Shown: positions 9,241 through 45,568 of the stretch, piece by piece | How the letters are laid out: each line of letters opens with the position of its first letter | Position numbering within the stretch: position 1 is the stretch's first letter | Assembly (NCBI GenBank): GCA_016190005.1 | Contig: JACPRK010000139.1 | Span: 24,717 to 88,716, forward strand | DNA from: Candidatus Wallbacteria bacterium | Lineage (GTDB): Bacteria > Muiribacteriota > UBA6191 > JACPRK01 | Direction: 5' to 3' | DNA length: 64,000 nt | The notes under the pieces: generated by a model | What the model was told of the DNA's origin: nothing | Seen by the model: only the letters and a program-made list of their open reading frames with translations | The model's database searches: none | Translations under genes and position numbers: made by a program

Positions 9241-9500
9241 CGCTCCCAGCGTCTTTCCTCGCGCCGCCGCAGTTCCTGCACCCACTTCACGCTGTCCTTC
9301 ATGTCTTCGCGGTCTTTCCACATGCCGCAGGCGGCAAGTTCGCTGAGGGGCCGCTTCGAGTGGCGAACGGGCGTGATCGACTCGGCCTCCAGATCGTCGG
9401 TCAAGACCCTGACCAGCTTGGCCCGCTGCGCGGGGCTGAGTTTCTTGGCCTGGGAGACGACTTCGGCGAAGTTCGGTTTCTGAACGGTGGCGCGAGCCAT
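9237..9500 (-). CDS. vapB: VapB-type antitoxin
   Basis: MARATVQKPNFAEVVSQAKKLSPAQRAKLVRVL... GAGGAGAGGA RBS 6 nt upstream of ATG 9500. 4-nt overlap with vapC. Confidence 0.6.
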   Translation of the reverse strand: MARATVQKPNFAEVVSQAKKLSPAQRAKLVRVLTDDLEAESITPVRHSKRPLSELAACGMWKDREDMKDSVKWVQELRRREERRWER

Positions 9501-10112: not shown

Positions 10113-10199
10113 TGGTGCCGAAGAGGGGACTCGAACCCCTACGGGATTACTCCCACTGGTCCCTGAAACCAGCGCGTCTACCAATTCCACCACTTCGGC
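10113..10199 (-). tRNA. tRNA-Leu (anticodon CAG)
   Basis: Reverse complement GCCGAAGTGGTGGAATTGGTAGACGCGCTGGTTTCAGGGACCAGTGGGAGTAATCCCGTAGGGGTTCGAGTCCCCTCTTCGGCACCA. It has a 7-bp acceptor stem, an anticodon loop TTCAGGG (CAG), a long variable arm, a GGTTCGAGTCC T-arm and an encoded CCA. Confidence 0.85.
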
Positions 10200-10334: not shown

Positions 10335-11000
10335 TCAGCCCCCTCGAACCAGCGCCTCCAGACAGGCCTGCAGAAGGGCCGGCGAGCCGCCGGAATCGGC
10401 CAGGTAGCGCACCAGCGCAAGCAGATCGCCGAGCTCGTCGACGTCCCGCAACTCGGGAAGCAGCTCGACCGTCAGCCCGAGGGAACCGCAGCGCGCCAGC
10501 GTCCTCGAGAGCACGGCCGGCGTGCTCCAGGGGATTCCGGCGAAGAGACCCGGGCACGGCGACCGCAACGCCATCAGATAGTAGCCCCCGTCGGTGGCGG
10601 GACCGAGGACGACATCGGCCACTCCCAGCAGCTCGAAGGCTCGCCGGACGAGGGGCGCCCCCAGTTGCGGAGAGTCCGAACCGATGACAGCAGCGCGCTC
10701 GTACCCCCGACGGAAGGCCTCCTCGAACGCGCCTGCCATGCGCAGGCCGAGGTCTCCGCCGGACTGCGGCTCGACTGTCCACCCGGGTGGCGCCAGCCGG
10801 CGCGCGCGCTCGGACTCCTCCGCAGGCGCGAAGTAAAGCGCCCTGTCGCAGCCGGCGCCCTCCCCCAGCTCGATCGTCTCCCGAAGGAACGCCTCCGCGA
10901 GCCGCGCGGCCCGCTCGTCGCCAATGGACGCGGCAAGCCGGGTCTTGCAGCTCCCGGGCAACGGGACCTTGGCGAACACGATGAGGAGTTCCTTCGACAT
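10335..11000 (-). CDS. DUF2064 / TIGR04282-family protein (glycosyltransferase-associated)
   Basis: MSKELLIVFAKVPLPGSCKTRLA... DGGYYLMALR matches the DUF2064 pattern. An alternative upstream Met exists. Confidence 0.6.
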   Translation of the reverse strand: MSKELLIVFAKVPLPGSCKTRLAASIGDERAARLAEAFLRETIELGEGAGCDRALYFAPAEESERARRLAPPGWTVEPQSGGDLGLRMAGAFEEAFRRGYERAAVIGSDSPQLGAPLVRRAFELLGVADVVLGPATDGGYYLMALRSPCPGLFAGIPWSTPAVLSRTLARCGSLGLTVELLPELRDVDELGDLLALVRYLADSGGSPALLQACLEALVRGG

Positions 11001-11102
11001 GTGGGGCTCAGGCCGCATCCGGTGAAAGCGCTCGGCTCCGCTTTCCAAGAAGCCGACCGAAACCGGCAGCCGGGCGCGGTTCCGCGGCAGAAGTGAGGCG
11101 CC

Positions 11103-11790
11103 TCATTCCACGTCTGGCGAGAGCTGCGCCTTCAGCGCCTTCTTGGCGGCGCGCGTCATCAGGACGGCGGCGCCGATCGTGGCGGCCAGCCCCAGCCAGT
11201 AGAGCCCCTGCCCCATGGGACCGGGGACCGAGCGCCGCGGCCGGTAAGAAGCTCCGAGGCGCTGGTGACCACCGAACCCAGATAAACATACATGACAGTC
11301 CCGGGGAGCATGCCGAGGAACGACCCAAGAACGTAGTCCCGGAAGCCAACCCGAGTCAAACCCAACGCGTAGTTGAGCAAGTTGAAGGGAATCACCGGGG
11401 AGAGGCGCAGGAGCAAGACGACTCGGAACCCGTCTCGCTCCACGGCCCTGTCTATCGCCTCGAAGCGCGGCTGCCGCCGGAGCCGGCTCTCGACCCACGG
11501 TCTGGCGATCGACCTTCCCAGGAGAAAGGCCGCTGTAGCCCCCAGAACACTGGCCGGAGACACCAGCAGACTGCCGCCGATCGGTCCGTAGGCGAACCCG
11601 GCGCCGAGGGTCAGGACCGATCCCGGCAGCATCGTGATCGTGGCGGCGACGTAGACGATTTCATAGACAATCGCCCCTTCGACGCCATGCTGGCGGGCCC
11701 ACTCGACGACGAGAAGCAGCGATTGCGAGAGCGTATTGATGGCGGCCTCCTCTGCGATCCGAGACTCTCGACGTCCCGCGCGGTCGAGGG
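11103..11790 (-). CDS. DedA/TVP38/TMEM64-family membrane protein, copy 1, interrupted by an apparent 1-nt frameshift near 11215
   Basis: ...VEWARQHGVEGAIVYEIVYVAATITMLPGSVLTLGAGFAYGPIGGSLLVSPASVLGATAAFLLGRS...RLSPVIPFNLLNYALGLTRV matches the paralog at 41547-42254. After PVPWGRG the homologous C-terminus (GLYWLGLAATIGAAVLMTRAAKKAL) continues in another frame, which is ORF 11103-11498. No canonical start codon was found at the N-terminus. Confidence 0.55.
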
Positions 11791-11860
11791 TAACGCCGCC
11801 GGAGCGTGACCCGGGACCTCCTGGCACGTCTCCTCCTTCGAACCGCAAGGAGCCCCCACC

Positions 11861-14362
11861 GTGACCTACGACGAAAACACGACGTATCACACGCCCCGCC
11901 TGTCCCTGGTCGAAAGGCAAGGAACGGCGCTCGCCATCGACGGCGAGACACCCAACTGGATCGCGACCGACAGCCGCGGCGCCCGGCTGCTCGCGTTGCT
12001 CGACGGAAGACGCAGGCTGGCCGAGGTCGTGCGCGCTTATGGCGCCTCCGAGGGCCTCGATACCGCGCGAGCCTGGACCCACGTCCATGACTTCACGCGC
12101 GGTCTGGAGCGTCTCGGAATCGCGTCCCGTAGCGCCCACGTGACGGCGCCCTACCCAGGCCGGGCCTCGGCGTTGCGGCTGGAGCGTCTGTCGGAGCTCT
12201 GGCTCCACACCAACAACAACTGCAACCTGGAGTGCGCTCACTGCCTGGTCAACTCCGGCCCCGCGGGAGAGAGAGGCCTCCCGGGCAAGGCTCTCCGGGA
12301 CGTCCTCGCTCAGGCGCACGCTCTGGGTGTCCGCCGGTTCTACTTCACGGGCGGAGAACCGTTCGCTCGTCCGGACATCTTCGAGCTCATCGAGGTCGCG
12401 ACGAGGGAGCTGGACGGAGAGCTGATCCTCCTGACGAATGCCACGCTGCTCGAAGGTAAGCGGCTCCTGAAGCTGGGTGAGATGGACCGCCAGCGGCTGA
12501 GGCTTCAGGTGAGCCTGGATGGGGCCAGCGCCCGGACCAACGATCCGCTTCGCGGGCGCGGGACGTTCGACTCGATTTGCGCGGGACTGACCCGTGTCGC
12601 CGGGCTGGGATTTCCGGTGACCGTCACGAGCGTCGTGACGCGCGGGAACATCGATGAACTGCCGGGTCTCGTGGGGCTGGCCCGCTCCCTGGGTGTCTCC
12701 GACATCCACCTGATGTGGCTGCACAAGCGTGGCCGCGCGGCGACGGACGGCGGCTTGCACTTCCCCTCGACAGGCGAGCTCGTCAGGCTCACGCGCCGCA
12801 TGAGAGCCCTGGGACAGTCGGAAGGGATCGTGATCGACAACTGCAGCTCCGCGCGCTACCACGTCAACGGCCGCCCTGGGCTCAGGTACGACCTGGGCAA
12901 CCAGGGCTGGGAAAGCCTCTGCATCTACGCGGACGGCAACGTCTATCCGTCGGCCGCGCTCGCCAACCACCGGCCTCTGCGCTTCGGAAACGTGTTGGAA
13001 GAGCGGCTGGAGCGGATCTGGCGCGACAGCCCCACGGCTCGCGAAATCCGCGGGGCCTCGGTGCAGCGCAAGAGCGGCGCTCATGGAGACTTCCTGAAGT
13101 TCTTCACTGGCGGCGGAGACATCGAGCACAGCTACCTCTTCAGCGAGGCGAGGCTCGGCACGGGCAGCTTCCTGGCGGAGGACCCCTACTACGAACTGGC
13201 TCGGGAGCTGGCGCTGGATGCCATGTTCGAGCTGGCGGCCGAGGGCAAGCAAGCGTCGAACGGACGCTCGGGCTACGGCGCGCCTCCCATCTACCACGCG
13301 ATGGGACACGGGACCGTGGTGTGCGGGGCGGACGACATCGACGTGAGCTCCGACCAGGAGGTCCGAACGCTGCACTCCAACTGCGTCCTCGGCTTCGACG
13401 TCGAGAGGCCGCATCGAATCGTCGAGCAGTTCTACGGCGAGGCCGCCAGCGATCCCAAGCCGGGCCTCTGCTGTCCCGAGAGCTTCTCGAGGGAGGACGT
13501 ATCGCATATTCCGGCGGCGGTGCTGGAGCGGGCGTTCGGTTGCGGCTCGCCCGTGACGTTGGCTGGCGTTCGGGTAGGAGAGACAGTGCTCGACATGGGC
13601 AGCGGCGGAGGCATCGATTGCTTCATAGCTTCCCGCAAGGTCGGCGAGACGGGCGCGGTCATCGGCGTCGATATGACTGAGAAGATGCTCCAGGTCGCAA
13701 TGGAGAACTTGCCTCTGGTGGCCGGTGAACTGGGCTACCGAAACGTCGAGTTCCGCAAGGGGTATCTGGAGCGGGTGCCGGTGGATGCCGGCTCGGTGGA
13801 CCTGGTCACGTCCAACTGCGTCATCAACCTGTCACCGGACAAGCGGGCAGTCTTCTCGGAGATGTGGCGAGTGCTGAAGGATCACGGCCGGGTGGTCGTG
13901 AGCGATATCGTCAGTGAGGGGTCCGTGCCGGCGCACCTCAGAGTGAACTCCACGCTCTGGGGTGAGTGCCTGGGAGGGGCTCTTTCGGAGGACGAGTTTC
14001 TCGGAATGCTCGAGGCCGCGGGCTTTTACGGCATCTCTCTTCTGAAGAAGACGTTCTGGCAGGAGGTAGCCGGCTACCGGTTCCATTCGATCACGGTGCG
14101 CGGGTACAAGTTCGAAAAGAAGGCTGGCTGCGATTTCGTCGGCCAATGGGCGATCTACCAGGGGCCGTACAAGGCCGTCGTCGACGAGGAAGGACACCTC
14201 TTTCCGAGGGGGGAGGCCATCGAGATCTGCACCGATACGGCCGCCAAGCTGGAGAGGATGCCCTACGCGGGCTCGTTCACTCTGATCGGCCAGGCCGTCG
14301 AGGGCCGCACGAGCTCGCAGCAGGACACGCCCTGCTGCGAGCCCGGCGGAAGGTGCTGCTAG
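11861..14362 (+). CDS. radical SAM / SPASM-domain protein fused to an ArsM-type arsenite S-adenosylmethionine methyltransferase
   Basis: AAGGAG RBS before GTG 11861. CNLECAHC radical-SAM cluster motif. The C-terminal domain has ArsM hallmarks: GCGSP, the SAM motif VLDMGSGGGID, SNCVINLSPDK and LWGECLGGAL (the conserved catalytic cysteines). The last residues are Cys-rich (CCEPGGRCC). Confidence 0.8.
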   Translation: MTYDENTTYHTPRLSLVERQGTALAIDGETPNWIATDSRGARLLALLDGRRRLAEVVRAYGASEGLDTARAWTHVHDFTRGLERLGIASRSAHVTAPYPGRASALRLERLSELWLHTNNNCNLECAHCLVNSGPAGERGLPGKALRDVLAQAHALGVRRFYFTGGEPFARPDIFELIEVATRELDGELILLTNATLLEGKRLLKLGEMDRQRLRLQVSLDGASARTNDPLRGRGTFDSICAGLTRVAGLGFPVTVTSVVTRGNIDELPGLVGLARSLGVSDIHLMWLHKRGRAATDGGLHFPSTGELVRLTRRMRALGQSEGIVIDNCSSARYHVNGRPGLRYDLGNQGWESLCIYADGNVYPSAALANHRPLRFGNVLEERLERIWRDSPTAREIRGASVQRKSGAHGDFLKFFTGGGDIEHSYLFSEARLGTGSFLAEDPYYELARELALDAMFELAAEGKQASNGRSGYGAPPIYHAMGHGTVVCGADDIDVSSDQEVRTLHSNCVLGFDVERPHRIVEQFYGEAASDPKPGLCCPESFSREDVSHIPAAVLERAFGCGSPVTLAGVRVGETVLDMGSGGGIDCFIASRKVGETGAVIGVDMTEKMLQVAMENLPLVAGELGYRNVEFRKGYLERVPVDAGSVDLVTSNCVINLSPDKRAVFSEMWRVLKDHGRVVVSDIVSEGSVPAHLRVNSTLWGECLGGALSEDEFLGMLEAAGFYGISLLKKTFWQEVAGYRFHSITVRGYKFEKKAGCDFVGQWAIYQGPYKAVVDEEGHLFPRGEAIEICTDTAAKLERMPYAGSFTLIGQAVEGRTSSQQDTPCCEPGGRCC

Positions 14363-14479: not shown

Positions 14480-16033
14480 TCAGCGTCTCCAGGCGAGAAT
14501 CGTCGACAGGACCTGCTTGACGAGCGGCGTCAGGCGCGTGCGGTTCCACGCGTCTCCCGCGCGCTTGGCGACCTCAGACTGGGTGGGGTAGGGGTGGACT
14601 GTCGACGCGATCTTGCCGAGCCCAATTCCCTGGGTCATCGCCAGCGTGAGCTCGGCCAGCAGGTCTCCGGCGTGCCGTGCCACGAGGGTCGCGCCAAGAA
14701 TCCGGTCCGAGCCTTCTCGCAGGACGACTTTCAGCAATCCCTCGGTCTCCCCGTCCAGGATTGCCCTGTCCACGCCGTCCATCGGTATACGCACGACGGT
14801 CGTGGCCATGCCTCTGCTTCTGGCCTGCTCCTCGGTGAGGCCGACGTGGGCGAGCTCCGGATCGGTGTAGGTGCACCAGGGTATCGTCAGGTCCGAGACC
14901 TTCTGCCTTCCGAAGAAGAGCGCGTTCTTCAGGACGATGCGGGCCATGGCGTCCGCGGCGTGCGTGAATTGAAAGGCAGAGCAAATGTCGCCGGCCGCAT
15001 AAACGTCGGGGTTGGACGTCCTCAGGTACTCGTCGACCTCGATGCCCTTGGCGTTGTACCGCACACCCGCGGCCTCGAGCGCCAGGCCGTCCAGGTTGGG
15101 TACCCGTCCGGCGCTGACGAGCACGTTGTCGACTTCGACATCCAGCGGCCCTTCGTGCGACGTCGCATAGAGGCGCGTGGTACCGTCTTCCCGGCGCACC
15201 TTCAGATCCTTTCCGCAGCAATGAAGTCGAACGCCGTCGCGGTCCAGGGCGGCGCGCACAATCTCCGAGAGCTCAGCGTCCTCGCGCGGAAGAATCCCGT
15301 GCATGGCCTCGAAGAGATGGACCTCGCTGCCGAAGCGGCGAAACGCCTGAGCCATCTCGCATCCGATGGGACCGGCGCCGATGATGCCGAGCCGCCTGGG
15401 CAACGAGGTGAGCGAGAAGAGATTCTCGTTCGTGAGAAAGCCGGCTTCGGAGAGACCGGGCACGGGCGGGGCACCGGCACGGGCGCCGGTGGCGATGACG
15501 GCCCGGCTGAACAGCAGGCGCTGTCCGGACACCTCCACCGTATCAGGCCCTGCGAAGCGGCCGGCGCCCAGGAACACGTCGACGCCCAGATCAGCAAATC
15601 GTTTCACCGAGTCGTGCGGGCTGATCCCGGCGCGCAGTCGGCGCATCCGCCGCATGATCGCCGGGAAGTCGACCCGAATCGCTTCGAAGGGGACCTCGAT
15701 GCCGAGCGCCGAGGCGTCCCGGACGTCAGCGATGGCCCGGGAGGATCGGAGCAATGCCTTCGATGGAACGCAGCCGACGTTCAGGCAATCGCCGCCAAAG
15801 AGCCGGCGCTCCACGAGCGCCACCCGCGCTCCGAGCGAGGCGGCCCCCGCGGCGGAGACGAGTCCTGCCGTGCCGGCGCCGATCACCACCAGGTTGTACC
15901 TGCCGGCCGGCTCCGGGTTGACCCAGTCCGCGGGGTGCACGTTGGAAGCGAGCGCGCGGTTGTGCTCGTCCAGCGGCTCTAGTTCCGGAACCTGAAGCGA
16001 GAGACTCTCGAAGTCGGATGCGGAAGACGTCAC
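14480..16033 (-). CDS. FAD-dependent pyridine nucleotide-disulfide oxidoreductase (mercuric-reductase-like, no NmerA domain)
   Basis: GAGTAG FAD motif, redox-active GGDCLNVGCVPSK, NAD motif GIIGAGPIGCE, and a C-terminal dimerisation domain TVHPYPTQSE. Confidence 0.85.
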   Translation of the reverse strand: MTSSASDFESLSLQVPELEPLDEHNRALASNVHPADWVNPEPAGRYNLVVIGAGTAGLVSAAGAASLGARVALVERRLFGGDCLNVGCVPSKALLRSSRAIADVRDASALGIEVPFEAIRVDFPAIMRRMRRLRAGISPHDSVKRFADLGVDVFLGAGRFAGPDTVEVSGQRLLFSRAVIATGARAGAPPVPGLSEAGFLTNENLFSLTSLPRRLGIIGAGPIGCEMAQAFRRFGSEVHLFEAMHGILPREDAELSEIVRAALDRDGVRLHCCGKDLKVRREDGTTRLYATSHEGPLDVEVDNVLVSAGRVPNLDGLALEAAGVRYNAKGIEVDEYLRTSNPDVYAAGDICSAFQFTHAADAMARIVLKNALFFGRQKVSDLTIPWCTYTDPELAHVGLTEEQARSRGMATTVVRIPMDGVDRAILDGETEGLLKVVLREGSDRILGATLVARHAGDLLAELTLAMTQGIGLGKIASTVHPYPTQSEVAKRAGDAWNRTRLTPLVKQVLSTILAWRR

Positions 16034-16395: not shown

Positions 16396-17085
16396 ATGGC
16401 ATCGCAAATTCACTTTGGCCCGCAGCTCTTTCGGTTTCTATCCGACCTTTCCCGGCACAACGACCGGGAGTGGTTCCAGAAGAACAAGCACCGGTACGAG
16501 CAGGACGTGAGAGATCCGATGCTCGCGTTCATCGGCGATTTTGCTCCGTACCTCGAGAAGATCAGCCCGGCGTTCCTCGCCGATCCGCGGCCCAACGGCG
16601 GTTCGCTGTTCCGGATTCACCGAGACGTCCGCTTCTCGTCCGACAAGAGCCCGTACAAGACGAACGCTGGGGCCCACTTCCGCCACGAATCGCACAAGGA
16701 CGCCCACGCGCCCGGCTTCTACCTGCATCTGGAACCGCGTGAGGTCTTTGCTGCCGCCGGCGTCTGGCATCCGGACGGCGCGTGCCTGACCCGAATCCGG
16801 CAGACAATCGTGGCCGATCCGGACGGGTGGCGACGGGCCTCGACCTCGAAAGCCCTCCGCGCGGCTGGAGCCCTCGGCGGAGATTCGTTGAGACGTCCGC
16901 CCGCGGGCTTCGATGCCGACCACCCGCTGATCGAAGACCTCAAGCGCAAGGACTTCTTCGCCATCGCCCGTCTCACGCCCGAAGACGTATGCAAACCTGG
17001 CTTCATCCGTGAGTTCGCGAAGACCTGCGAGGCCTTCTCCGGGCTCACGCGCTTCCTCACGGTGGCGCTGGGGCTGCGCTGGTGA
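16396..17085 (+). CDS. DUF2461 (TIGR02453) family protein
   Basis: LSDLSRHNDREWFQKNKHRYEQDVRDP...RIHRDVRFSSDKSPYKTN matches the DUF2461 pattern. Confidence 0.7.
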   Translation: MASQIHFGPQLFRFLSDLSRHNDREWFQKNKHRYEQDVRDPMLAFIGDFAPYLEKISPAFLADPRPNGGSLFRIHRDVRFSSDKSPYKTNAGAHFRHESHKDAHAPGFYLHLEPREVFAAAGVWHPDGACLTRIRQTIVADPDGWRRASTSKALRAAGALGGDSLRRPPAGFDADHPLIEDLKRKDFFAIARLTPEDVCKPGFIREFAKTCEAFSGLTRFLTVALGLRW

Positions 17086-17128: not shown

Positions 17129-18322
17129 TCAGAATGCGGCCTGCATGGCCAGCACGAGCTGGTCATCGCTGGTATGGCCACGCCCATCGTTACGCAGATA
17201 GTTCAGCTGAAGCTTGCTGAAGTGAGCGTCCAGGAAGTAGTTCAGCCCGAACGTGGTCGCCCGCTCGACGGAATTCGGCAGCGACAGATCCCGCTCCAGC
17301 GCCTCTCGCCGCACCAAGGTCTGCCAGCGAGTTGCGAGAGTGTAGCCGGCGGTGGCGAACCAGCCGCGCTCGCGCACCGCCTGGTCCCGAGCCGTGATGA
17401 GCTCTGCCTTGAGCACCCATCGAGGGTCAGGCTTCCACTCGAGGTCGTAGCCCATCCTGTCCTTCGCGCCCAACGTCGGACCCTGCCGGCCCCGATAGGC
17501 GGAGACGCCTACTTCGAAACTGGAACTGGGATGCCAGCTCACGAGTCCCGCGACGTCCTTCGCATCGTTCGTATCGTTCGCGTTCAATTCAGTGCCGTTG
17601 AAGAGAGCGAGCCGGAAGTCGAACTCGTCGGAGGCTCGACGGAATTGCACGCCCAGGTCTCGCCTGTCGCCGAAGATGCGGGAGATCATCGCGCGTTCGG
17701 CGAAATCGAGCCGGCCTGCCGAACCGCGGCCTTCCTTACCGATCGGGATCTTGAACTGGCCGAGGTCGAGGAACACGCGACCGTTGAGTCGAGCTCCCAC
17801 ATAGGCGTCCTGCAAGGGGCGGCTTGCCTGGATGATGCCCTGCGGGCTCTCGACCAACGGCTTGGAAGGGTCGAGCATCGCGTAGTAGTAGACGCTGTCC
17901 GTGAGGTCACCGGATATCTTCAGCTCCGAGCGCCGAACTCGAAACGTGTCCGGGGTTGGCTGACCCGCGGTGAACCAGCTCTGAACGAGACCGCCGATCC
18001 GAAGGATTCCACGCTCGGAGCGCGTAGCGACGTTGGACGCCCCGCGCCTCGGACGCGCGTACTCCTCGGGGCCAATTCCGCCTCGAGGGACGATGGTTGG
18101 CAGCGTTTGAGAGACGGGTTGAGTTGCCGCCTCTTGCCTGGCCTCCGAGAGGATCGCTGTCGCTTCGGCCGAAGACAAGACGCCCTTTTCCAGCAGCTTG
18201 CCGATCAGCTTGTCGACGGCGGTGGAACCCGCGGCGTCTGCTCTGGCGGCTGCGACCAGGGCGAGCGCGAGTACGAAGACTTGGCGAGTACGGAACAGGG
18301 AAAGGGCGTTGTTCGGTAGCAT
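17129..18322 (-). CDS. phosphate-selective porin O/P family outer-membrane protein
   Basis: Signal peptide, a beta-rich composition and a C-terminal ...LAMQAAF with terminal Phe. Similar to OprO/OprP-family porins. It sits beside a PiT gene. Confidence 0.7.
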   Translation of the reverse strand: MLPNNALSLFRTRQVFVLALALVAAARADAAGSTAVDKLIGKLLEKGVLSSAEATAILSEARQEAATQPVSQTLPTIVPRGGIGPEEYARPRRGASNVATRSERGILRIGGLVQSWFTAGQPTPDTFRVRRSELKISGDLTDSVYYYAMLDPSKPLVESPQGIIQASRPLQDAYVGARLNGRVFLDLGQFKIPIGKEGRGSAGRLDFAERAMISRIFGDRRDLGVQFRRASDEFDFRLALFNGTELNANDTNDAKDVAGLVSWHPSSSFEVGVSAYRGRQGPTLGAKDRMGYDLEWKPDPRWVLKAELITARDQAVRERGWFATAGYTLATRWQTLVRREALERDLSLPNSVERATTFGLNYFLDAHFSKLQLNYLRNDGRGHTSDDQLVLAMQAAF

Positions 18323-18380: not shown

Positions 18381-19484
18381 CTATCCAGCGAGGCAGGCCG
18401 CAGCGAGCGCGGAGAGGGTTACGGCCAGAGGCAAGGTGAAGATCCACGCAAGCGCGATGCTGGCGATCATGCGCCAACGGGCTTCACCCGTGGTCGCCCC
18501 CAGGCCGAAGAGTGATCCGCATGAGACGTGCGTCGTCGAGACAGGTAGACCCAGGCGCGAGGCGAAGAGCACGAGTGCCGCGGTGACCAGGTTCGCGGTG
18601 AAACCCTGGCCATGATTCATTCTGGTGATGCGCTCGCTCATGGTTCTGGAGACACGGCCCGCATAGAGCAGACCGCCAATGGCCATTGAGACCGCGATCG
18701 CGGCAAATCCGCTCACATGGCTCACCGTCCCTGCCGCCAGTAACAGGGCAGCAATCTTGGGCGTGTCGTTGAGTCCGCGGGCGAACGAGGTGGCCCCAGC
18801 GCTGACGAAGTGCACCCAGTCGAGCGCGTCTTGCGCCTCGACCGACAGGAGGGTGCCGGCGTACCGGCGCTGGCAGGTGGTCAGGACCGGCAGGGCCGAG
18901 GCTAGCGGCATGGCCTGCCCGCCGCCCGGCGCGCCCTGCGGCACCAGCGGCACCCATCTGCCCTCCACGCAGACGCAGTCCGAGGCGGTGACTCCGAGTT
19001 GCAGGCGCAGCCGGCGCAACACCGGGTAGAGCAGCATCGTGAGCACCAGCGCAACGGCCGGCGACAAAAGAAGCGGCGCCACGAACTTTGCGCCGAGGGT
19101 CGAGAGCCTCAGTTCGCCCCCCAGGGCCAATCCCGCACCCACCAGCGCCCCGGTGAGCGCGTGGGTCGTGGAAATCGGCATCGCCAGGCAAGTGGCCAGA
19201 ATGACCGTGCCCGCGGCCCCAAGGGCGACCGCCGCGACGAACGCCTGCTGACCGACCAGTCCATCCGGTACCAGGCCCGCGCCCGAAAAGCTGCGGGCGA
19301 GCTCTGCAGACAAGGCGACCGCACAGAGCGAGCCGCCGAGCGTGGCTAGAGTTCCCCACGCGAGGGCCGTCCGTTGCGAGGCCGCCCCGCTGCCCGCGAG
19401 CGTGGCGACGCCCTTAGAGTTGTCGTTGGCGCCGTTGGCCGCCGACACCAGCAGGGCGGCTCCCGCCGCAATCCAGTCACTCAT
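18381..19484 (-). CDS. pit: inorganic phosphate transporter, PiT family
   Basis: GGAGAG RBS before ATG 19484. Duplicated PiT signature motifs GANDNSKGVATLAGSGAAS and GLNDTPKIAALLL. Confidence 0.85.
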   Translation of the reverse strand: MSDWIAAGAALLVSAANGANDNSKGVATLAGSGAASQRTALAWGTLATLGGSLCAVALSAELARSFSGAGLVPDGLVGQQAFVAAVALGAAGTVILATCLAMPISTTHALTGALVGAGLALGGELRLSTLGAKFVAPLLLSPAVALVLTMLLYPVLRRLRLQLGVTASDCVCVEGRWVPLVPQGAPGGGQAMPLASALPVLTTCQRRYAGTLLSVEAQDALDWVHFVSAGATSFARGLNDTPKIAALLLAAGTVSHVSGFAAIAVSMAIGGLLYAGRVSRTMSERITRMNHGQGFTANLVTAALVLFASRLGLPVSTTHVSCGSLFGLGATTGEARWRMIASIALAWIFTLPLAVTLSALAAACLAG

Positions 19485-19940
19485 GGGATTCTCTCCTGTC
19501 AGCTCGTCCCCGGCGCGAGCTGTCTCCGGTCTACAGTGCGGCCGGGCTGTTCCGGATTCAAGAGACGACGGACGCCGCGACTCGTCACGCTCTGCATCCG
19601 GCTCGACCACGCCAGCGTAGACTGTTCTGGCCCTTCGCCACTCACGGCAGGGTCGGCGGCACGGGTCTGGGTCTCAGCATGGCGCGCAGCTTCTCCGAGG
19701 CAGACGCAGGGCGCCTCAGCTTCGAGGTCGCTCCCGGCGCCGGAATCCGGTTCGAGGTCGAGCTCCCGATCGATCGGGACGACGGTCCTGGGCACGGCGA
19801 GTGGATATCGCCGCGACTACGAGCCCGATCCGCAGGCCGAACGATAATGAAGCTCACTCGAGGACCGGCCTCGCCCGCCGGCCCTGCGCTCCGTGTTACC
19901 TTCGAACCGGATCGGCGTCGTATCGGACGACGAACCCGGC

Positions 19941-20573
19941 ATGACAGCCACCGACGATTCAGGATACGCCTCTCTGACAGACGAGGAGCTCGTGCGGCGC
20001 GACGGCGACGGCGACACCTCAGCTTTCGACATGCTCATCGACCGGCACGCGTCTCGTATTCTCGGCTTTCTCTTTCGTTCGACCGGGGATCGAGCGCTGT
20101 CGGAGGACCTGTTGCAGGAGACCTTCTTGAAGGCGTTCAGGAATAGACGCGGCTGGCGCGGAGAATCGCGATTTTCCACGTGGCTCGTGCAGATTGCGCG
20201 AAACCTGCTGATCGACAGGTTTCGATGGATGGGTCGCTGGAGAAGCGTCTCGATCGACGAGATGGATACTCAACCTGAACGGGCCATCCGTTCGGGTGAT
20301 CCGAGCCCTGAGGAAGCCGCACTGAGACGCGAGAGACACGACGAGCTGCGGGCAGCCATCCTGCGGCTTCCGGAGCGACAGCGAGAAGTCCTGTTGCTGT
20401 CTCGGTACTGCGACATGAGCTATGCGGAGATTGCCAGGCTGACCGGAGTCACGGAAGATGCCATCAAGCAGCTCGCCTACCGCGGCGTGCTGGCACTCAG
20501 ACGAGACCTGACGGGAAGCGGAGAGGCCAAAGATGGAGTCGAACCGACACCCCTGCGACGGAAAAGGTCCTGA
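19941..20573 (+). CDS. ECF-type RNA polymerase sigma factor
   Basis: Sigma70 region 2 (LLQETFLKAFRN...STWLVQIARNLLIDRFR) and region 4 (EVLLLSRYCDMSYAEIARLTGVTEDAIKQLAYRG). Confidence 0.8.
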   Translation: MTATDDSGYASLTDEELVRRDGDGDTSAFDMLIDRHASRILGFLFRSTGDRALSEDLLQETFLKAFRNRRGWRGESRFSTWLVQIARNLLIDRFRWMGRWRSVSIDEMDTQPERAIRSGDPSPEEAALRRERHDELRAAILRLPERQREVLLLSRYCDMSYAEIARLTGVTEDAIKQLAYRGVLALRRDLTGSGEAKDGVEPTPLRRKRS

Positions 20574-21189
20574 GGTCACGGCCTACGTGACGGGAAACCT
20601 CGACGCCGCCGCCCGAGCGGTGTTGGAGGCTCACATGACGTCCTGCTCGGCTTGCCGGGACTCGGAGCGATCGATCCGCGATGTATGGGCCTTGATGGCC
20701 ACGTTGCCGATGGAGACCGTGCCGCACGTCGTGAGGAGAGGGCTGAAGGCGACGATCGCCGCCGAACGAAGTGCCGTCGCGATGTGGCCGGTGGTCGTCG
20801 AAACCTTGCTTGCTCTGGGGCTGTTGACGATGCTGGGCGTAGTCTGCCCGATTCCGATGGTCTGCGAGTTCTTCCACACGGTTGTTCAACCGTTGCTGGG
20901 AGAGCGCTTCACGTTCTTGGCCCATACCATGGCCGCTGCGATGATGGGGCTGCTTCCTCTCGTGAGCGCGGAGCTACTCACTGGAAGGCTCGCAAGTCCG
21001 CCGACGACCCAGCGCCGTCAGCTCGTTGGAATGGGGTACTTCGCGCTGGTGGCCGTGGGCGTGCCGTTGTTGCGAATCCTCCCGCCCGATCCCGTCGCCG
21101 TCGTGAGCTGGTGCGCCGGCGCGGCGGCGGCGGCGTGGCTCTCGATGGAGATTGCGGAGAAGCTCCAGCCGGCCGCGGTCAGCTCGTGA
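20533..21189 (+). CDS. zinc-finger anti-sigma factor, membrane-anchored
   Basis: Overlaps the sigma-factor stop. HxxxCxxC motif EAHMTSCSACRD, then several hydrophobic transmembrane stretches. Confidence 0.6.
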   Translation: MESNRHPCDGKGPEVTAYVTGNLDAAARAVLEAHMTSCSACRDSERSIRDVWALMATLPMETVPHVVRRGLKATIAAERSAVAMWPVVVETLLALGLLTMLGVVCPIPMVCEFFHTVVQPLLGERFTFLAHTMAAAMMGLLPLVSAELLTGRLASPPTTQRRQLVGMGYFALVAVGVPLLRILPPDPVAVVSWCAGAAAAAWLSMEIAEKLQPAAVSS

Positions 21190-21443: not shown

Positions 21444-22301
21444 TCAGCGTGAGCTTCCGCTGCCGCCTTCGCGAGGAGCCTCGTTGAGGGACCAATCGTA
21501 GGAGAGCCACCGCACCTGGAATCCACCAGCCGCGATCGCCGCCTGAGCTTGCGGGGGTCCGAACTTGGCCAAGAAGCTCGCGGCGGCCGCGGACTTTCCG
21601 CCCAGTCCGCCGAAATTGCCGCCGGGTGCATACGCTCTCAGGAAATCATCCGCGAACCAGTCGAAAATCTGCGAGGCATGCAACACCTTCGCCGACAGGT
21701 CGATCCGATTGCGGGCCAAGCTCGTGGCGAAGCTGCGTGCCGCCTCGTCGAGCTGGGCGCCAAGTCGATCGCCAAGAAAGGGCTCCGCGCGCAGTTCGGG
21801 GCAGCTCACCGACGCGCAGTTGATGGCTGCGTGCAGTCGCGGGTCTGCGAACTCCTTCCGAAGCACCTCGTGCTCGATGTGATTGAGAGTGACCGGACGC
21901 CCTGCGGCGGTGAAAGTGATCTTGTCCCAGACACCCGGGATTTGACGGATGCTGCTCCGCGGATAGAGCGAGAACCAACTTCCCTGGATCGGGTAGTGGT
22001 CGATGATGACCTTCAGGGTGAAGGCGTTGTAGGCGTTGATCCAGTAGGCGAACCGGTCGTCTCGGCTCCAGGTCGAGAGGGCCTGCGGAGGGACGGCTCC
22101 GAGGGCGGTCACATAAGTATCGAGCCGCGTCCTTCCGTTCTTGAGCGCGGCGTAATCGACCAGTCCGTTGCGGACATGCGCCTTCAGAACCTGGGCGTAG
22201 AGGCCGTGAGTGCGATCGAAGTCACCGGCGAACAGGCCGGACGTGGCTAGGCACGCGCCGATCAGCGCAAGAGAAACGAAGTTGGGTCTTGTCATGTCCA
22301 T
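21444..22301 (-). CDS. DUF547 domain protein with signal peptide
   Basis: TAAGGAG RBS before ATG 22301. ...RFAYWINAYNAFTLKVIIDHYP...AINCASVSCPELR is the DUF547 signature. Confidence 0.7.
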   Translation of the reverse strand: MDMTRPNFVSLALIGACLATSGLFAGDFDRTHGLYAQVLKAHVRNGLVDYAALKNGRTRLDTYVTALGAVPPQALSTWSRDDRFAYWINAYNAFTLKVIIDHYPIQGSWFSLYPRSSIRQIPGVWDKITFTAAGRPVTLNHIEHEVLRKEFADPRLHAAINCASVSCPELRAEPFLGDRLGAQLDEAARSFATSLARNRIDLSAKVLHASQIFDWFADDFLRAYAPGGNFGGLGGKSAAAASFLAKFGPPQAQAAIAAGGFQVRWLSYDWSLNEAPREGGSGSSR

Positions 22302-22425
22302 GCTCCTTAGTCGATCCCCGGGGCAGCCGGCAACAAGCCGGCGCATCCAGGAGACGTCCGCGCCAGCGAAAGGTAACGGCCCAGGTTGGGTGCGTAGGAC
22401 GCCCGTCGGGCTGTGTCAGTGGGCA

Positions 22426-41546: not shown

Positions 41547-42254
41547 ATGGCCAGCCTGGCGATTGCACTTGCCGCGCTGCTGGCGGTGGCAGCGAGTTTG
41601 CCCATTGGCGCGTGGCTCTTGCGGACAGTGGAGTGGATCCGATCGGCTGGCGTGGCCGGCGCGCTCGCGTACGGCGCGATTTACGTGCTGGCCACGGTCT
41701 TGATGCTGCCGGGTTCCGCGCTGACACTGGGGGCCGGATTCGCTTACGGTCCCCTCTTGGGGACCCTTCTCGTTTCGCCCGCGAGCGTGCTCGGCGCGAC
41801 GCTGGCCTTTCTACTGGGACGGTCCGCCGCTAGAGAATGGGTGGTAGGCAAGATGACGGCCCATCCGCGGTTCGGAGCGGTGGACCGCGCCGTCGGCGAT
41901 CGTGGCTTCTTGCTGGTGATGCTGCTGAGACTATCGCCCTTGTTTCCGTTCAACTTGCTCAACTACGCGCTGGGCGCAACTCGCGTGAGGCTGCGCGACT
42001 ACGTGGTGGCATCCTTCGTCGGGATGCTTCCGGGCACGTTCCTGTACGTTTACCTGGGCTCCCTCGTCACCAGCGCAGGCGAGCTGCTCGGCGGTCAGCG
42101 GCCGGCGGCGGGGCCCTGGGGCAGGGGGCTCTACTGGGTCGGTCTGTTCGCAACTGTCGCTGTCGTGGCCTTCGTGACACGCTTCGCGAGACAGGCGCTG
42201 GATCGAGCTCTAGAATCGGCTGATGCCCGAACTTCCGAAGAGACGAAGTCATGA
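41547..42254 (+). CDS. DedA/TVP38/TMEM64-family membrane protein, copy 2, intact
   Basis: MASLAIALAALLAVAASLPIGAWLLRTVEWIRSAG...LPGSALTLGAGFAYGPLLGTLLVSPASVLGATLAFLLGRS...RLSPLFPFNLLNYALGATRV. Paralog of 11103-11790. Confidence 0.75.
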   Translation: MASLAIALAALLAVAASLPIGAWLLRTVEWIRSAGVAGALAYGAIYVLATVLMLPGSALTLGAGFAYGPLLGTLLVSPASVLGATLAFLLGRSAAREWVVGKMTAHPRFGAVDRAVGDRGFLLVMLLRLSPLFPFNLLNYALGATRVRLRDYVVASFVGMLPGTFLYVYLGSLVTSAGELLGGQRPAAGPWGRGLYWVGLFATVAVVAFVTRFARQALDRALESADARTSEETKS

Positions 42255-42265
42255 ATCCGAACCCG

Positions 42266-42610
42266 GATCACCCTACAAGTTCACTCACGCAGCCGACGTG
42301 ATGGCCCGAATCGTGATCGCCAACGCCCTGTTCGGCAGCCGTGGCTCGGGCAGTGCTCTGACGATCCCGTGGTGCACCTGCATCGATCCCGAGATCGCCC
42401 ACGTGGGATTGTACGAGGCCTACGCGCGCAAGCGCGGCCTCGCCGTAGACACCTACACTCAGCCGCTGTCGGAGGTGGACCGCGCCATTCTTGACGGCGA
42501 GGAGGAGGGGTTCGTGCGAGTGCACGTACGGCAGGGATCCGACACGATCCTGGGCGCCACCGTCGTGGCGCGCCATGCCGGGGAGATGATTTCGGAGCTG
42601 ACGCTAACGA
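42266..42610 (+). pseudogene. C-terminal fragment of a pyridine nucleotide-disulfide oxidoreductase (dimerisation domain only)
   Basis: KFTHAADVMARIVIANALFGSRGSGSALTIPWCTCIDPEIAHVGLYEAYARKRGLA...ILGATVVARHAGEMISELTLT aligns with residues ~365-490 of the 14480-16033 protein. It has no N-terminal FAD/NAD domains, and the frame degenerates after ELTLT. Confidence 0.6.
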
Positions 42611-43262
42611 GGAAGATCTCGTCGGGCCGTGCCTGGACCGGCTGCAACAATTTGCGCCGGGCACGGAGATTCTCGTTGTCGACGGCGGCAGTACCGACTC
42701 CACGCGCGAGCGGGTGTCTGCTCGGCCCTGGACGACGTTGATTTCTGCGGGAAGGCCTCCCCGCGGCATGCAGATGAACGCTGGAGTTCACGTCACGCGC
42801 GGCGACATCCTGCTACTCCTACACGTCGATATGGAGCTGCCCCCGGACGCTGTGACTCAGATCGAGAAGGCGACCGAGGGTCCCCAAGTCGTGGGAGGCG
42901 GGTTCCGCAAGCGCCACCGCGAAGCCCCGCCGTTGCTTGTCCTCCAGGACTGGTGGCTGAACACGTTGCGTTCGGGACTTCAGCGCCATCTGGTCGGGAC
43001 CAACGGCATCTTCGTGAGGAGAAGCGTCTTCGAGCACTTGGGAGGATTCAGAGAGTGGTCACTGCTGGAAGACGTGGAGTTCCCGGACCGACTGCGGGAC
43101 CTCGGTCGGGTCGCGTTTTTAACGGGTCCAGTGCTGGTCTCGGCGCGCAAGTATCTGCGGCATAGGACGCTGAGGCAGCGTCTCACGAATGCCCGAGTGA
43201 TGGCGGGATATGGGTGGCTGGGCATTCACCCCGAACAGCTCGCTTCGATCTGCGGGGCCTAG
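42600..43262 (+). CDS. family-2 glycosyltransferase (TIGR04283-like), N-terminally truncated
   Basis: ...EEDLVGPCLDRLQQFAPGTEILVVDGGSTDSTRE...GMQMNAGVHVTRGDILLLLHVDMELP...GIFVRRSVFEHLGGFREWSLLEDVEFPDRLR is a GT2 fold. The first ~15 residues and any start codon are missing, replaced by the oxidoreductase fragment. Confidence 0.55.
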   Translation, partial: DANEEDLVGPCLDRLQQFAPGTEILVVDGGSTDSTRERVSARPWTTLISAGRPPRGMQMNAGVHVTRGDILLLLHVDMELPPDAVTQIEKATEGPQVVGGGFRKRHREAPPLLVLQDWWLNTLRSGLQRHLVGTNGIFVRRSVFEHLGGFREWSLLEDVEFPDRLRDLGRVAFLTGPVLVSARKYLRHRTLRQRLTNARVMAGYGWLGIHPEQLASICGA

Positions 43263-43466: not shown

Positions 43467-44465
43467 CTATCTCGCCGGCCTTTCTGCCGAAAGGATGCGG
43501 TTCATCGATTCGAGAAAGTGCTTCATGAACTTTTCCCGGTGGACCGTCATCACGACGTCGACAGCACGACCGCTGCCGGTCGGATCGATGACGGTTCTCA
43601 ACGTCTGCCCCCACATCTCGATCGACACGGGCAACTTCTGCACCTGTGCCAGCTCCGGGGTGTGCGCCAGCACGCAACCCAGGACGTCTCCCAGGTGCGT
43701 CTCGTGGCTTGCGTGTCGTGCCAGTCGTTCCTCGACCCGGGCCACAGTCCAGCTGGCCACTGGTGTCCCCAATCGGCGCCACTCTTCGAGATGCCGCTTC
43801 TCGACCGTGACCTCGAGCGCTGGAGCCAGACCGCTCATCAGGATCGGCACTCCAGATTCGAATACGAGCGCCGCGGCGTCGGGATCGCAGTTCAGGTTGT
43901 ACTCGCTCTTGTAATCGACGAAAATCGTGCCCCGCTCGGTGACGGGAGGAAAGTGCGTCGCGCCACCGACGACCATGAGCTGGCCGATTCGCTTCGGCAA
44001 CTCCGGATCCTTCAAAATGGCCACGGCGACGTTGGTCAAGGGGCCGATGGCCAGGACTTTCAACCCGGGATGCCGCCGCGCGGCCTGGATCATAAGGTCG
44101 ACGCCGTGCTCGGAGGAGACCGGTGTCCTCGGCTCCGCGTCGAGGTGCTGGCGCAGCTCACGGCTCCAGTCTCTGGGCTGTTTGCGACGGAGCAGCGTCG
44201 TGCCGATACCCGCGCCGACGCGGATGTCCGGCCGGCCGGCCAGTTCGAGCAATCGCCGGGCAATACGCGCGCGGGCCCCCGATTCGCCATGAACCGTCGA
44301 GATCCCGACGAGCTCGAGCTCAGGTGTCGCCAGAATGGTCAGCAGCGCAAGCACGTCATCGACGTCGGAACCGATGTCGGTGTCGAGGAAGACTGGGACT
44401 CGGTCGCCGGCCAGGCAGTTTGCCGAGCTGCATGCGAGCAATGCCACGAGAATCCAGGCTCTCAA
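43467..44465 (-). CDS. inosine-uridine-preferring nucleoside hydrolase family protein (secreted)
   Basis: Signal peptide. N-terminal aspartate cluster VFLDTDIGSDVDDVLAL is the IUNH calcium-binding motif. ...GPLTNVAVA... Confidence 0.8.
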   Translation of the reverse strand: MRAWILVALLACSSANCLAGDRVPVFLDTDIGSDVDDVLALLTILATPELELVGISTVHGESGARARIARRLLELAGRPDIRVGAGIGTTLLRRKQPRDWSRELRQHLDAEPRTPVSSEHGVDLMIQAARRHPGLKVLAIGPLTNVAVAILKDPELPKRIGQLMVVGGATHFPPVTERGTIFVDYKSEYNLNCDPDAAALVFESGVPILMSGLAPALEVTVEKRHLEEWRRLGTPVASWTVARVEERLARHASHETHLGDVLGCVLAHTPELAQVQKLPVSIEMWGQTLRTVIDPTGSGRAVDVVMTVHREKFMKHFLESMNRILSAERPAR

Positions 44466-45568
44466 CTGATGACCTCCCGATGGATGCTGCTGCTTTGCGG
44501 TTCCAGGACCAAGATGGTGGCCTGTCGCAACACCTGGCGACGCTTTTCCTGCGAATCGACGAACGGCGAGTTCGCTGCGCCGATGACGCGCCGGATCATC
44601 TCGAAGCCGGCCATCTTCAAGATCGACTTCAGGAGACCGTCATGTCGCATTTCGTCAAGGTAGGCTCGCAGGAAGGCAGCGTACGGCACCGGACGGGCAA
44701 GCGAAATGGTGAGCATCAGCAGATGCGCAAGCAGCATCCCGGGATCGAACCACGCGGCGCCCGGATCGCAGAGCTCGGCGTCGAGGACAGTGGCGCGACT
44801 GCCCTCCCGCACGAAGATGCTCTCGCCGTGCAGATCCCCATGCGTCAGGACGCTTGGCTCGCCGGACTTGAAGTCACTTTCGAAGCTGCGAGCCTCCGCA
44901 GCAAGACGCTCGCCGGCCTGCTCGAACAGGTGAGCCTGTAAGACGGCGAGGCCTTCCCCACCGTCGCGGGAGCTCCAGATGGCGCGCATCTGCTCGGGAT
45001 GCTCCAGCGGAAGTGTGAGAACGTAGGGCCGATTGGCTGCGGCTGTGGGGTTGTTCCGAAAGCCCGCAGGTACTTCCAGCGAGAGACTCCCTCGGTGAAA
45101 GCGGCCCAGATCGCGGCCCAAGTTCGCGAAGAACTGCGGCTCCGGGAAGGCATCCGACAGAAGGCACCTTTCCAAAGACATCGATGGAGCCAGGTCCTCC
45201 GCGACCAGGACGCGATTTTCGATGTCCTGGGCGAGGATCGAGGGCACCCACCGATCGAGGAAGGCCTCGCTCGAGGCTCGGTAGTAAAACGCCTCGAACG
45301 CGAGGCGGTCCTCCGGAAAACGTATGCTCGGGTATCTCTCGAGGGCACCTCCCGCGGGCACGTGCTTGACGACGCACGACCCCACGACGCGCCCCGACAG
45401 GTCCACGTACGAGACTCGCCGGACACGATTGATGTTGCCGCTGATGTCGTCGACGCGAGCAGTGACCTGCGCGTCGCCGGCAAGTCTAGCCTGAACACCC
45501 GTTCGACGAAGGTACTCCTCGAAGTCTGCTGGCGAACGTAGTTCGCGGGACGAGAAGCAGTCGCTCAA
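44462..45568 (-). CDS. methylthioribose kinase-like / aminoglycoside phosphotransferase-family kinase
   Basis: Brenner/APH-type motifs LTHGDLHGESIF and LDAELCDPGAAWFDPG resemble MtnK. The 4-nt overlap with the nucleoside hydrolase gene suggests an operon. Confidence 0.6.
   Translation of the reverse strand: MSDCFSSRELRSPADFEEYLRRTGVQARLAGDAQVTARVDDISGNINRVRRVSYVDLSGRVVGSCVVKHVPAGGALERYPSIRFPEDRLAFEAFYYRASSEAFLDRWVPSILAQDIENRVLVAEDLAPSMSLERCLLSDAFPEPQFFANLGRDLGRFHRGSLSLEVPAGFRNNPTAAANRPYVLTLPLEHPEQMRAIWSSRDGGEGLAVLQAHLFEQAGERLAAEARSFESDFKSGEPSVLTHGDLHGESIFVREGSRATVLDAELCDPGAAWFDPGMLLAHLLMLTISLARPVPYAAFLRAYLDEMRHDGLLKSILKMAGFEMIRRVIGAANSPFVDSQEKRRQVLRQATILVLEPQSSSIHREVIS

Follow-up and report, generated by a model that had tools for sequence, protein, structure and literature searches.

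What reaction is carried out by an enzyme in which a radical S-adenosylmethionine (SAM) module and an arsenite methyltransferase (ArsM) share one polypeptide? This question is raised by a gene in the 64-kb stretch of Candidatus Wallbacteria DNA analyzed here as a whole (hereafter, the window), where a single open reading frame (ORF) of 833 aa occupies exactly positions 11861-14362 of the plus strand. We tentatively propose, largely by analogy with the radical SAM enzyme ArsS, that its product is a bifunctional organoarsenical enzyme, which would methylate As(III) and add to it a carbon substituent by radical chemistry, most likely the 5'-deoxyadenosyl group; we consider this quite possible, if still somewhat short of probable. 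The gene itself is beyond question: its start codon, GTG, is preceded at 9 nt by the Shine-Dalgarno sequence AAGGAG, and its stop codon, TAG, excludes selenocysteine read-through; its GC content is 0.85 at the third and 0.48 at the second codon positions in a sequence of 66% GC, the pattern of a real coding gene. The translation is 100% identical to a protein of a Candidatus Wallbacteria metagenome-assembled genome (MAG) at NCBI (P0001), labelled only 'methyltransferase domain-containing protein'. Source names for the family are likewise generic, and a full-text search of the literature found no description of a radical SAM-ArsM fusion.

The single-polypeptide fusion had been claimed in a preliminary description of this DNA, and it is confirmed by the one ORF with Pfam and NCBIfam domains for both halves. 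All the motifs quoted there (CNLECAHC, GCGSP, SNCVINLS, WGECLGGA, and the terminal CCEPGGRCC) are present, and Pfam matched the Radical_SAM (PF04055), SPASM (PF13186), and Methyltransf_31 domains alike. The radical SAM part, put there at about 560 aa, is actually about 510 aa long, including an N-terminal RRE/PqqD-like domain of about 95 aa. In an AlphaFold2 model of the protein, built on 28 homologues (pLDDT 84.2, pTM 0.84), the ArsM module is predicted to be confidently packed against the radical SAM module. Conservation was assessed in an alignment of 28 full-length homologues with 51-74% identity.

The C-terminal third of the protein is an ArsM-type module on both motif and structure tests, despite its shortfall on the NCBIfam model PRK11873 (240.6 bits, slightly under the 263 cut-off, with positions 49-233 of the 272 of the profile aligned). 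Pfam Methyltransf_31 matches aa 573-721 (E 3.8e-30), and the NCBIfam model of the arsinothricin-type ArsM matches as well, the match extending into the C-terminal domain. In comparison with solved structures, aa 510-813 match Chlamydomonas ArsM (1.7e-41), human AS3MT, and CmArsM; the protein has the Rossmann SAM-binding motif and all three domains of the ArsM fold, the C-terminal one among them. The catalytic cysteines C537/C538 (LCCP), C561 (GCGSP, 560-564), C653 (SNCVINLSP, with SNCVINLS at 651-658), and C703 (WGECLGGA, 700-707) are invariant among the 28 homologues and correspond to C44, C72, C174, and C224 of CmArsM, four cysteines required for ArsM catalysis (PMC8552651). The conservation of these residues, asserted earlier, thus holds for all four of them, and the loss of the cysteine triad, which had been named as the contrary outcome, was not seen. 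The tail that follows has the family consensus CCxPGxxCC, and its residues C826 and C832 are shared by 90% or more of the sequences.

As to the N-terminal part, the Pfam Radical_SAM profile matches aa 118-266 (E 1.3e-19, over the curated threshold), with a partial TIM-barrel fold, and both the cluster-binding cysteines C121/C125/C128 (CNLECAHC) and the GGE SAM-binding motif (TGGEP) are invariant among the 28 homologues. Its closest NCBIfam models are those of the Rv1681 family, MftC, NirJ2, and PqqE, and the best structural matches are CteB, anSME, SkfB, and PqqE, of which PqqE is matched by aa 118-407 and SkfB by aa 1-279. The radical SAM half is of the SPASM/anSME/PqqE/CteB (peptide-maturase) type. 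The structural alignments with SkfB, CteB, and SuiB take in the N-terminal domain, which in the AlphaFold2 model consists of three strands followed by three helices, the topology of the RRE/PqqD winged helix. The Pfam PqqD profile matches this domain weakly and under the threshold (E 0.03); in the standalone relatives P0156, P0229, and P0230 the same profile scores over the threshold (26-40 bits). No B12-binding family was found in the Pfam scan of the fusion protein at E<=0.1, and in the absence of a cobalamin-binding domain the cobalamin-dependent (class B) radical SAM methylase was set aside; the radical C-methylation offered earlier as an alternative is accordingly unsupported.

Additional cysteine clusters suggestive of SPASM had also been reported. 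The SPASM profile and fold are indeed there (PF13186 at aa 348-399, E 6.5e-7, 30 bits against a cut-off of 21.5; the structural matches to anSME, CteB, and PqqE extend over this region), but the canonical seven-cysteine motif CX9-15GX4C ... CX2CX5CX3C ... C, characteristic of two auxiliary [4Fe-4S] clusters, is absent. In the alignment with PqqE both hairpin cysteines of CX9-15GX4C land on other residues, an invariant P363-S364 standing in place of 'PC', and the fusion reads YPS where relatives read YPC. The second element reads LKFFTGGGDIEHS as against CxxCxxxxxCGGGC in relatives, so that none of its cysteines is left in the window protein, and the same is true of L001 and of the long subfamily described below. 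Three of the four are kept in L002, L010, and L013, and the full motif (YPC, then CxxCxxxxxCGGGC) in a standalone homologue (L129), in the fusion L020, and in the reverse-order fusions P0189, P0201, and P0212. We propose from this distribution of residues that the radical SAM half may derive from an RRE-radical SAM-SPASM ancestor, the ligands of the auxiliary clusters having probably been lost stepwise. Only the cysteines C354, C488, and C508 are left in the window protein, and these are conserved within its subfamily. The candidacy of this trio as a universal As(III) site is weakened, as C354 is missing from the long subfamily and from L129 and C488 is not universal, which leaves only C508 (H..CVL).

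A word-indexed search returned at least 722 homologues at E<=1e-10, and the best 120 of these 722 matches are all about 820-890 aa long with full coverage. By their source names the matches belong to Wallbacteria, Nitrospirae, Zixibacteria, Latescibacteria, Elusimicrobia, Nitrospinae, and Deltaproteobacteria, and a scan of GTDB genomes adds Terriglobia, Vicinamibacterales, Thermoanaerobaculia, Gemmatimonadota, and Planctomycetota; the phyla with the fusion are Acidobacteriota, Gemmatimonadota, Nitrospirota, Elusimicrobiota, Zixibacteria, Planctomycetota, Thermodesulfobacteriota, and others. With the radical SAM half as the sole query, exhaustive searching of 1.84 billion representatives by HMMER gave no more than 149 clusters (50% identity) at E<=1e-30. 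In the 80 loci of a metagenome scan anchored on this half, ArsM comes directly after it wherever the contig goes on. The 163 loci collected comprise, among others, 61 short fusions, 20 long fusions, and 21 cut by the contig end (the 81 classed fusions together with the 21 cut ones are the 102 fusion loci referred to below), and in only 2 of the 163 was the radical SAM type present without a following ArsM. Without ArsM, this lineage of radical SAM proteins hardly ever occurs.

The long subfamily (960-1125 aa, 35-37% identity) includes L017, L019, L021-L024, and about 14 metagenome loci; one of its members, L021 (9827-13102), comes from a cultured organism, Hydrosulfovibrio ferrireducens CB1MN. 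These proteins carry an extra C-terminal DUF5714 domain, Cys/His-rich and resembling the model 'metal-binding double selenoprotein MbdU', and are without the first ArsM cysteine pair (IVNP instead of LCCP). P0189, P0201, and P0212 (680-711 aa) have the reverse order, namely ArsM, RRE-like domain, radical SAM core, and SPASM; they retain the ArsM cysteine motifs and the intact SPASM motif but not the ArsM C-terminal domain, and the methyltransferase of P0212 scores 236.9 bits on PRK11873. That the lineage has become joined to ArsM in either order constitutes strong Rosetta-stone evidence for a single process in which both activities take part. The standalone homologue in L129 (9971-15565, metagenome contig Ga0082335_1000415) is an RRE-radical SAM-SPASM protein of 509 aa, 36% identical to the radical SAM half of the window protein. 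In two MAG contigs, L006 (7473-10421) and L016 (9965-12497), the fusion is broken inside the radical SAM half into two overlapping ORFs, probably by an assembly frameshift and not as a natural split.

Which process this might be is suggested by known systems. To our knowledge, the only radical SAM routes to carbon-arsenic (C-As) bonds are those of ArsS and ArsL, each with a separate ArsM. ArsS adds the 5'-deoxyadenosyl radical to dimethyl-arsenic, giving 5'-deoxy-5'-dimethylarsinoyl-adenosine, the entry to arsenosugars, while ArsL moves a 3-amino-3-carboxypropyl group onto As(III), the product being methylated afterwards by ArsM (bioRxiv 10.64898/2026.04.29.721666; 10.1101/2024.02.01.577332; PMC8552651). 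Since each of them works with ArsM, both known radical routes pair a radical SAM enzyme with ArsM, the two acting on the same arsenic atom, as in ArsS + ArsM of Synechocystis sp. PCC 6803 and in ArsL + ArsM of arsinothricin synthesis in Burkholderia gladioli and Pseudomonas aeruginosa. Unlike the fusion, these are separate proteins; ArsL, besides, binds arsenic via C-terminal cysteines and is encoded in the context of an ars resistance operon. As to ArsL, the comparison extended to profiles alone, and its model is absent from the 25 best NCBIfam matches of the fusion.

On the ArsS model TIGR04167 the fusion scores 58.7 bits against a cut-off of 300, whereas the true ArsS proteins of the loci L029, L034, and L038 score 425-449 bits (432.8 for L038). 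When the radical SAM half was compared with four true ArsS proteins by hhalign, the profile-profile alignment was confined to aa 104-255, the generic core, with 21% identity; the ArsS-specific C-terminal half, rich in Cys/Sec, has no counterpart in the fusion, which has RRE-like and SPASM-fold domains instead. Orthology to ArsS is rejected on these two comparisons. An N-terminal domain of anSME type unrelated to ArsS is exactly what the preliminary description had named as speaking against its view, and this is what was found. In a neighbor-joining tree of ArsM domains, approximate and without bootstrap, the short fusions form one clade, with two standalone ArsMs as their nearest relatives, the long fusions form the next clade outward, and the ArsMs that accompany ArsS fall far off in a clade of their own. 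Given the separate ArsM clades and the core-only likeness to ArsS, the fusion partnership arose independently of ArsS/ArsM, and the radical SAM half is a lineage of its own that may have taken the ArsS role. From the maturases with RRE, radical SAM, and SPASM or twitch domains (CteB, SuiB, SkfB, ChlB, anSME, PqqE, MftC) the fusion differs in the lack of the canonical seven-cysteine motif and of an associated precursor peptide gene and in being joined to ArsM. Other proteins combining ArsM with a second domain are known, namely the NCBIfam ArsM/AhpD and ArsM/DUF2284 selenoproteins and ArsM-SelD of Naegleria (PMC13188914; PMC5552862), but none of these partners is a radical SAM enzyme.

The arsenosugar suggestion is supported by the genomic context shared with ArsS + ArsM loci, which was out of sight of the preliminary description, and not by the radical SAM half, whose likeness to ArsS ends at the generic core. 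Accessory genes were counted by tblastn in the loci, taken as +-10 kb around the anchor. Among the 102 fusion loci, TIGR04282 (CofC-like) occurs in 18, DedA in 21, a MerA-like flavoprotein in 17, the PiT transporter, frequently directly adjacent to the fusion on the same strand, in 20, and DUF547 in 10. TIGR04282 was found in none of the 53 plain-ArsM loci (Fisher p 4e-4), and at least one of the five families in 50 of 102 fusion loci, in 3 of 4 ArsS + ArsM loci, and in 4 of 53 plain-ArsM loci (Fisher p=1e-7), both p-values being approximate, as the loci are phylogenetically non-independent and the controls are mostly from other phyla. A family 2 glycosyltransferase (GT2) scoring as TIGR04283 (230-253 bits, cut-off 182) is present in 22 loci, of which about 17 are fusion loci; the ArsS loci L034, L038, and L065 contain it too, and so does L129, next to the standalone homologue. 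A true ArsS and a separate ArsM occur together with the same accessory genes in L038 (Marinamargulisbacteria) and in L065 (Methylophilaceae), DUF547 being among those of L038; in sum, TIGR04282, TIGR04283, DedA, MerA-like, DUF547, and PiT are common to the two systems. No ArsS was found in the window or within 10 kb of any fusion.

The association is most complete in L165 (Elusimicrobia), where PiT, the fusion, GT87, TIGR04283, TIGR04282, DUF547, DedA, MerA-like, AhpC/TSA, and patatin genes form one tight co-directional operon with an extracytoplasmic function (ECF) sigma factor gene divergent upstream; ECF sigma factors occur in 8 loci of the first set, including the window, GT-C (GT87) in 7 loci, and thioredoxin genes nearby in 9. 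In L129 the standalone homologue is followed by DedA, flippase-like (TIGR00374), TIGR04283, TIGR04282, and pgsA-like CDP-alcohol phosphatidyltransferase genes, a lipid-flavored context, and no ArsM lies within 10 kb of it. DedA proteins include flippases of lipids or undecaprenyl phosphate, and those of COG0398 are often fused to pyridine-nucleotide-disulfide oxidoreductase domains (PMC10127716). Separate radical SAM proteins also occur beside ArsM: L068 (9971-12746) contains in a row ArsM, DUF547, and a radical SAM protein of about 320 aa, and in L079 (9971-12651) ArsM is accompanied by a radical SAM protein of this kind, which is Rv1681-like (84-92 bits) and neither ArsS nor of the fused type. 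Porin O/P (0 of 102 fusion loci by tblastn) and DUF2461, both neighbors in the window, were rejected as cluster members, as they recur not at all or barely in the 102 loci.

The function proposed for the fusion is drawn from its architecture and context. The adenosyl-type reading is preferred because the fusion sits where ArsS + ArsM sit in related clusters, and the radical SAM half would then be a non-orthologous replacement of ArsS. The pathway could be as follows. Arsenate or arsenite would enter, possibly via PiT and the porin, and the ArsM domain would turn As(III) into methyl- or dimethyl-As(III). This oxygen-sensitive trivalent product would be handed to the radical SAM domain, where a further SAM would be cleaved and an additional C-As bond made; most likely the 5'-deoxyadenosyl radical would be added to dimethyl-As(III), as ArsS does, to give 5'-deoxy-5'-dimethylarsinoyl-adenosine. 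CofC-like TIGR04282, GT2 TIGR04283, DedA, and in some genomes GT-C might process the arsenoribose to a glycoside or a lipid-linked product. The covalent fusion would stop the escape of an intermediate both oxygen-sensitive and toxic; both this channeling and the adenosyl transfer are inferred.

A number of observations weigh against the adenosyl-type reading. The radical SAM half and ArsS have nothing but the generic core in common, and that the two would catalyze the same reaction is argued from context alone. This context, in turn, is incomplete: accessory genes are lacking altogether from about half of the fusion loci (from 24 of 48 among those of at least 10 kb), and in the long-read MAG chromosomes L081-L083 the fusion has no accessory neighbors, so that the enzyme can evidently stand alone. 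The names of TIGR04282 and TIGR04283 are guilt-by-association annotations, the former being a 'hypoth_equivalog' model, and the statistics given above are approximate, as said. Simple adenosyl addition would not obviously need auxiliary clusters, and the intact SPASM motif of the basal members (L129, L020, and the reversed fusions) hints at auxiliary-cluster chemistry. The RRE-like domain is not accounted for by this reading. A nucleosidase and a 5-substituted-ribose kinase are the next steps expected for an adenosyl-arsenical pathway, and the window does contain a nucleoside hydrolase gene and a gene with a 5-methylthioribose-kinase-like stretch in a side cluster at 42.2-45.6 kb; its relevance is suggestive only, and the two genes were rejected as conserved downstream enzymes, since they do not recur in the 163 other loci. 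The PNP_UDP_1 gene of L164 is uridine-phosphorylase-like and a single occurrence among the fusion loci.

Organoarsenicals might instead be made by radical chemistry unlike that of ArsS, for example with another SAM-derived fragment, as in ArsL, or by hydrogen abstraction from an As-methyl group leading to a longer alkyl chain and a new organoarsenical or arsenolipid head group. Full SPASM motifs, as kept by the basal relatives, are typical of enzymes of hydrogen abstraction and oxidation, and the radical SAM half unrelated to ArsS beyond the core, the separate ArsM clade, the lipid-flavored surroundings in L129 (pgsA-like, flippase-like, DedA), and the GT-C and patatin genes of L165 all fit; in the ArsL + ArsM precedent, moreover, the radical SAM step may precede methylation (bioRxiv 10.64898/2026.04.29.721666). 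Still, the accessory genes common to ArsS loci suggest the same intermediate, and no ArsL model is among the 25 best NCBIfam matches; we regard this chemistry as unlikely, though worth keeping in sight. In an elaborated form, to which we would give similarly little credit, the radical SAM half might carry out a C-As forming or As-alkyl-elaborating reaction distinct from both ArsS and ArsL, the CofC-like nucleotidyltransferase, GT2, DedA flippase, and GT-C might place the product on a polyprenyl-phosphate or lipid carrier for export, and the RRE-like domain might have been repurposed to hold, for instance, the Cys-rich tail or a carrier protein, which would mean a new class of envelope-associated organoarsenicals in many uncultivated phyla of soil and sediment. 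Somewhat less probable again is that the protein serves mainly as a detoxifying arsenic methyltransferase for anoxic habitats, its radical SAM module being supporting (redox, regulatory, or vestigial) and forming no new C-As bond. ArsM by itself is enough for methylation, and the loci devoid of biosynthetic neighbors, the decay of the SPASM ligands in the window lineage, and the thioredoxin genes near 9 loci agree with such a role; however, the invariance of CX3CX2C, GGE, and many other residues of the radical SAM half at 51-74% identity implies strong selection on catalysis, ArsM is joined to this lineage in both orientations, and the TIGR04282/TIGR04283 association is missing around plain ArsM genes.

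The radical SAM fold with its RRE-like domain could also be taken for a maturase of proteins or of ribosomally synthesized and post-translationally modified peptides (RiPPs), in which the RRE would bind a leader, the radical SAM/SPASM part would cross-link or oxidize, and the methyltransferase would methylate, its likeness to ArsM being a matter of ancestry. This is improbable: no small ORF conserved across phyla was found within 1.5 kb of 25 fusion genes, and a co-located precursor peptide gene was rejected on that ground; the four As-binding cysteines are invariant, as is the C-terminal domain specific to ArsM, the window protein has lost the canonical SPASM ligands, and the neighbors are transferases and transporters common to ArsS clusters and not RiPP genes. 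The bufferin-type RiPP genes that the window does contain at 23.4-25.4 kb are a separate system with its own maturase, not conserved with the fusion. Hardly more credible, in our view even slightly less so, is a substrate other than arsenic (Se, Te, Sb, or Hg). Other metalloids can serve as substrates of ArsM-type enzymes and of their relatives, a MerA-like flavoprotein and DedA are among the neighbors, and DUF5714 of the long subfamily resembles MbdU; yet the PiT and phosphate-porin neighbors suit arsenate, the ArsM cysteine set is the arsenic-binding set of the As(III)-bound crystal structures, and the accessory genes are again those of ArsS loci.

The features of the fusion gene and of its surroundings are collected in Table 1. 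In the region 42223-43262, 30 kb away from the fusion gene, a part of the organoarsenical cluster seems to have been duplicated and to have decayed or undergone a frameshift.

Table 1. The fusion gene, its domains, and neighboring genes in the 64-kb window (positions in the window; aa, residues of the fusion protein).
Feature	Position	Strand	Evidence
Fusion gene, 833 aa: RRE-like domain, radical SAM core, degenerate SPASM, ArsM, Cys-rich tail	11861..14362	+	ORF, Pfam, NCBIfam, AlphaFold2 model
RRE/PqqD-like winged-helix domain, aa 1-95	11861..12145	+	AlphaFold2 model topology; structural alignments
Radical SAM core, aa ~105-300; CX3CX2C = C121/C125/C128 (nt 12221-12244); TGGEP 163-167	12173..12760	+	PF04055, 1.3e-19
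SPASM-fold domain, aa ~335-470, without canonical Fe-S Cys ligands	12863..13270	+	PF13186; PqqE alignment
Complete ArsM/AS3MT module, aa ~510-811: N-terminal Cys region (C537/C538, C561), SAM-binding fold, As-binding Cys (C653, C703), ArsM C-terminal domain	13388..14293	+	
Disordered Cys-rich tail ending CCEPGGRCC	14294..14359	+	pLDDT about 33
TIGR04282 (DUF2064, CofC-like) 'arsenosugar biosynthesis glycosyltransferase', divergent upstream of the fusion	10335..11048	-	200.3 bits vs 134 cut-off
DedA/VTT-domain membrane protein, divergent from the fusion, exact start codon uncertain	11159..11830	-	PF09335, 9.4e-31
MerA-like FAD pyridine-nucleotide-disulfide oxidoreductase (PRK06370.1-3)	14480..16033	-	781 bits vs 620 cut-off
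DUF2461 protein	16396..17085	+	
Phosphate-selective porin O/P family, adjoins PiT	17129..18322	-	PF07396, 6.3e-18
PHO4/PiT-family phosphate (arsenate?) transporter	18381..19610	-	PF01384, 3.7e-60
ECF sigma factor and zf-HC2 anti-sigma factor	19893..21189	+	
DUF547 protein	21444..22346	-	PF04784, 2.2e-24
Fragment (123 aa) of a second MerA-like gene, overlaps the TIGR04283-like GT2	42223..42741	+	60% identical to aa 352-474 of the 14480-16033 gene
TIGR04283-like GT2, 30 kb from the fusion, no canonical (ATG/GTG/TTG) start before 42714	42606..43262	+	157 bits vs 182 cut-off, on fragment
RihA/RihC-like nucleoside hydrolase	43467..44465	-	
Kinase with 5-methylthioribose-kinase-like stretch, overlaps the nucleoside hydrolase by 4 nt	44462..45568	-	

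Several other genes of the window may be mentioned in passing. The bufferin-type pair at 23401-25441 (-) with 22426-23394 (-) encodes the MNIO enzyme BufB (NF050167, 334 bits vs 310) and a DUF2063/HvfC-like partner, and a Ser/Thr protein kinase gene adjoins it. A tRNA gene lies at 10116-10199 (-), just downstream of the TIGR04282 gene, and a VapC-like PIN toxin gene with a small antitoxin-like ORF upstream at 8845-9551 (-). Two paralogous sensor histidine kinases, encoded at 39271-40476 (+) and 32066-33508 (-), are 45% identical over 382 aa.

In general, the family would represent a third, evolutionarily independent radical SAM lineage for C-As chemistry with ArsM. The stepwise loss of SPASM ligands inside one family makes it a natural experiment on the need for auxiliary clusters, and TIGR04282, TIGR04283, DedA, MerA-like, DUF547, and PiT proteins are candidates for the later steps of arsenosugar or arsenolipid biosynthesis. 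If the fusion does produce adenosyl-arsenicals or related compounds, the synthesis of arsenosugars and arsenolipids would be far wider among bacteria of soil, sediment, and groundwater than the cyanobacterial and algal paradigm implies, which would have a bearing on the speciation and mobility of arsenic in paddy soils and aquifers.

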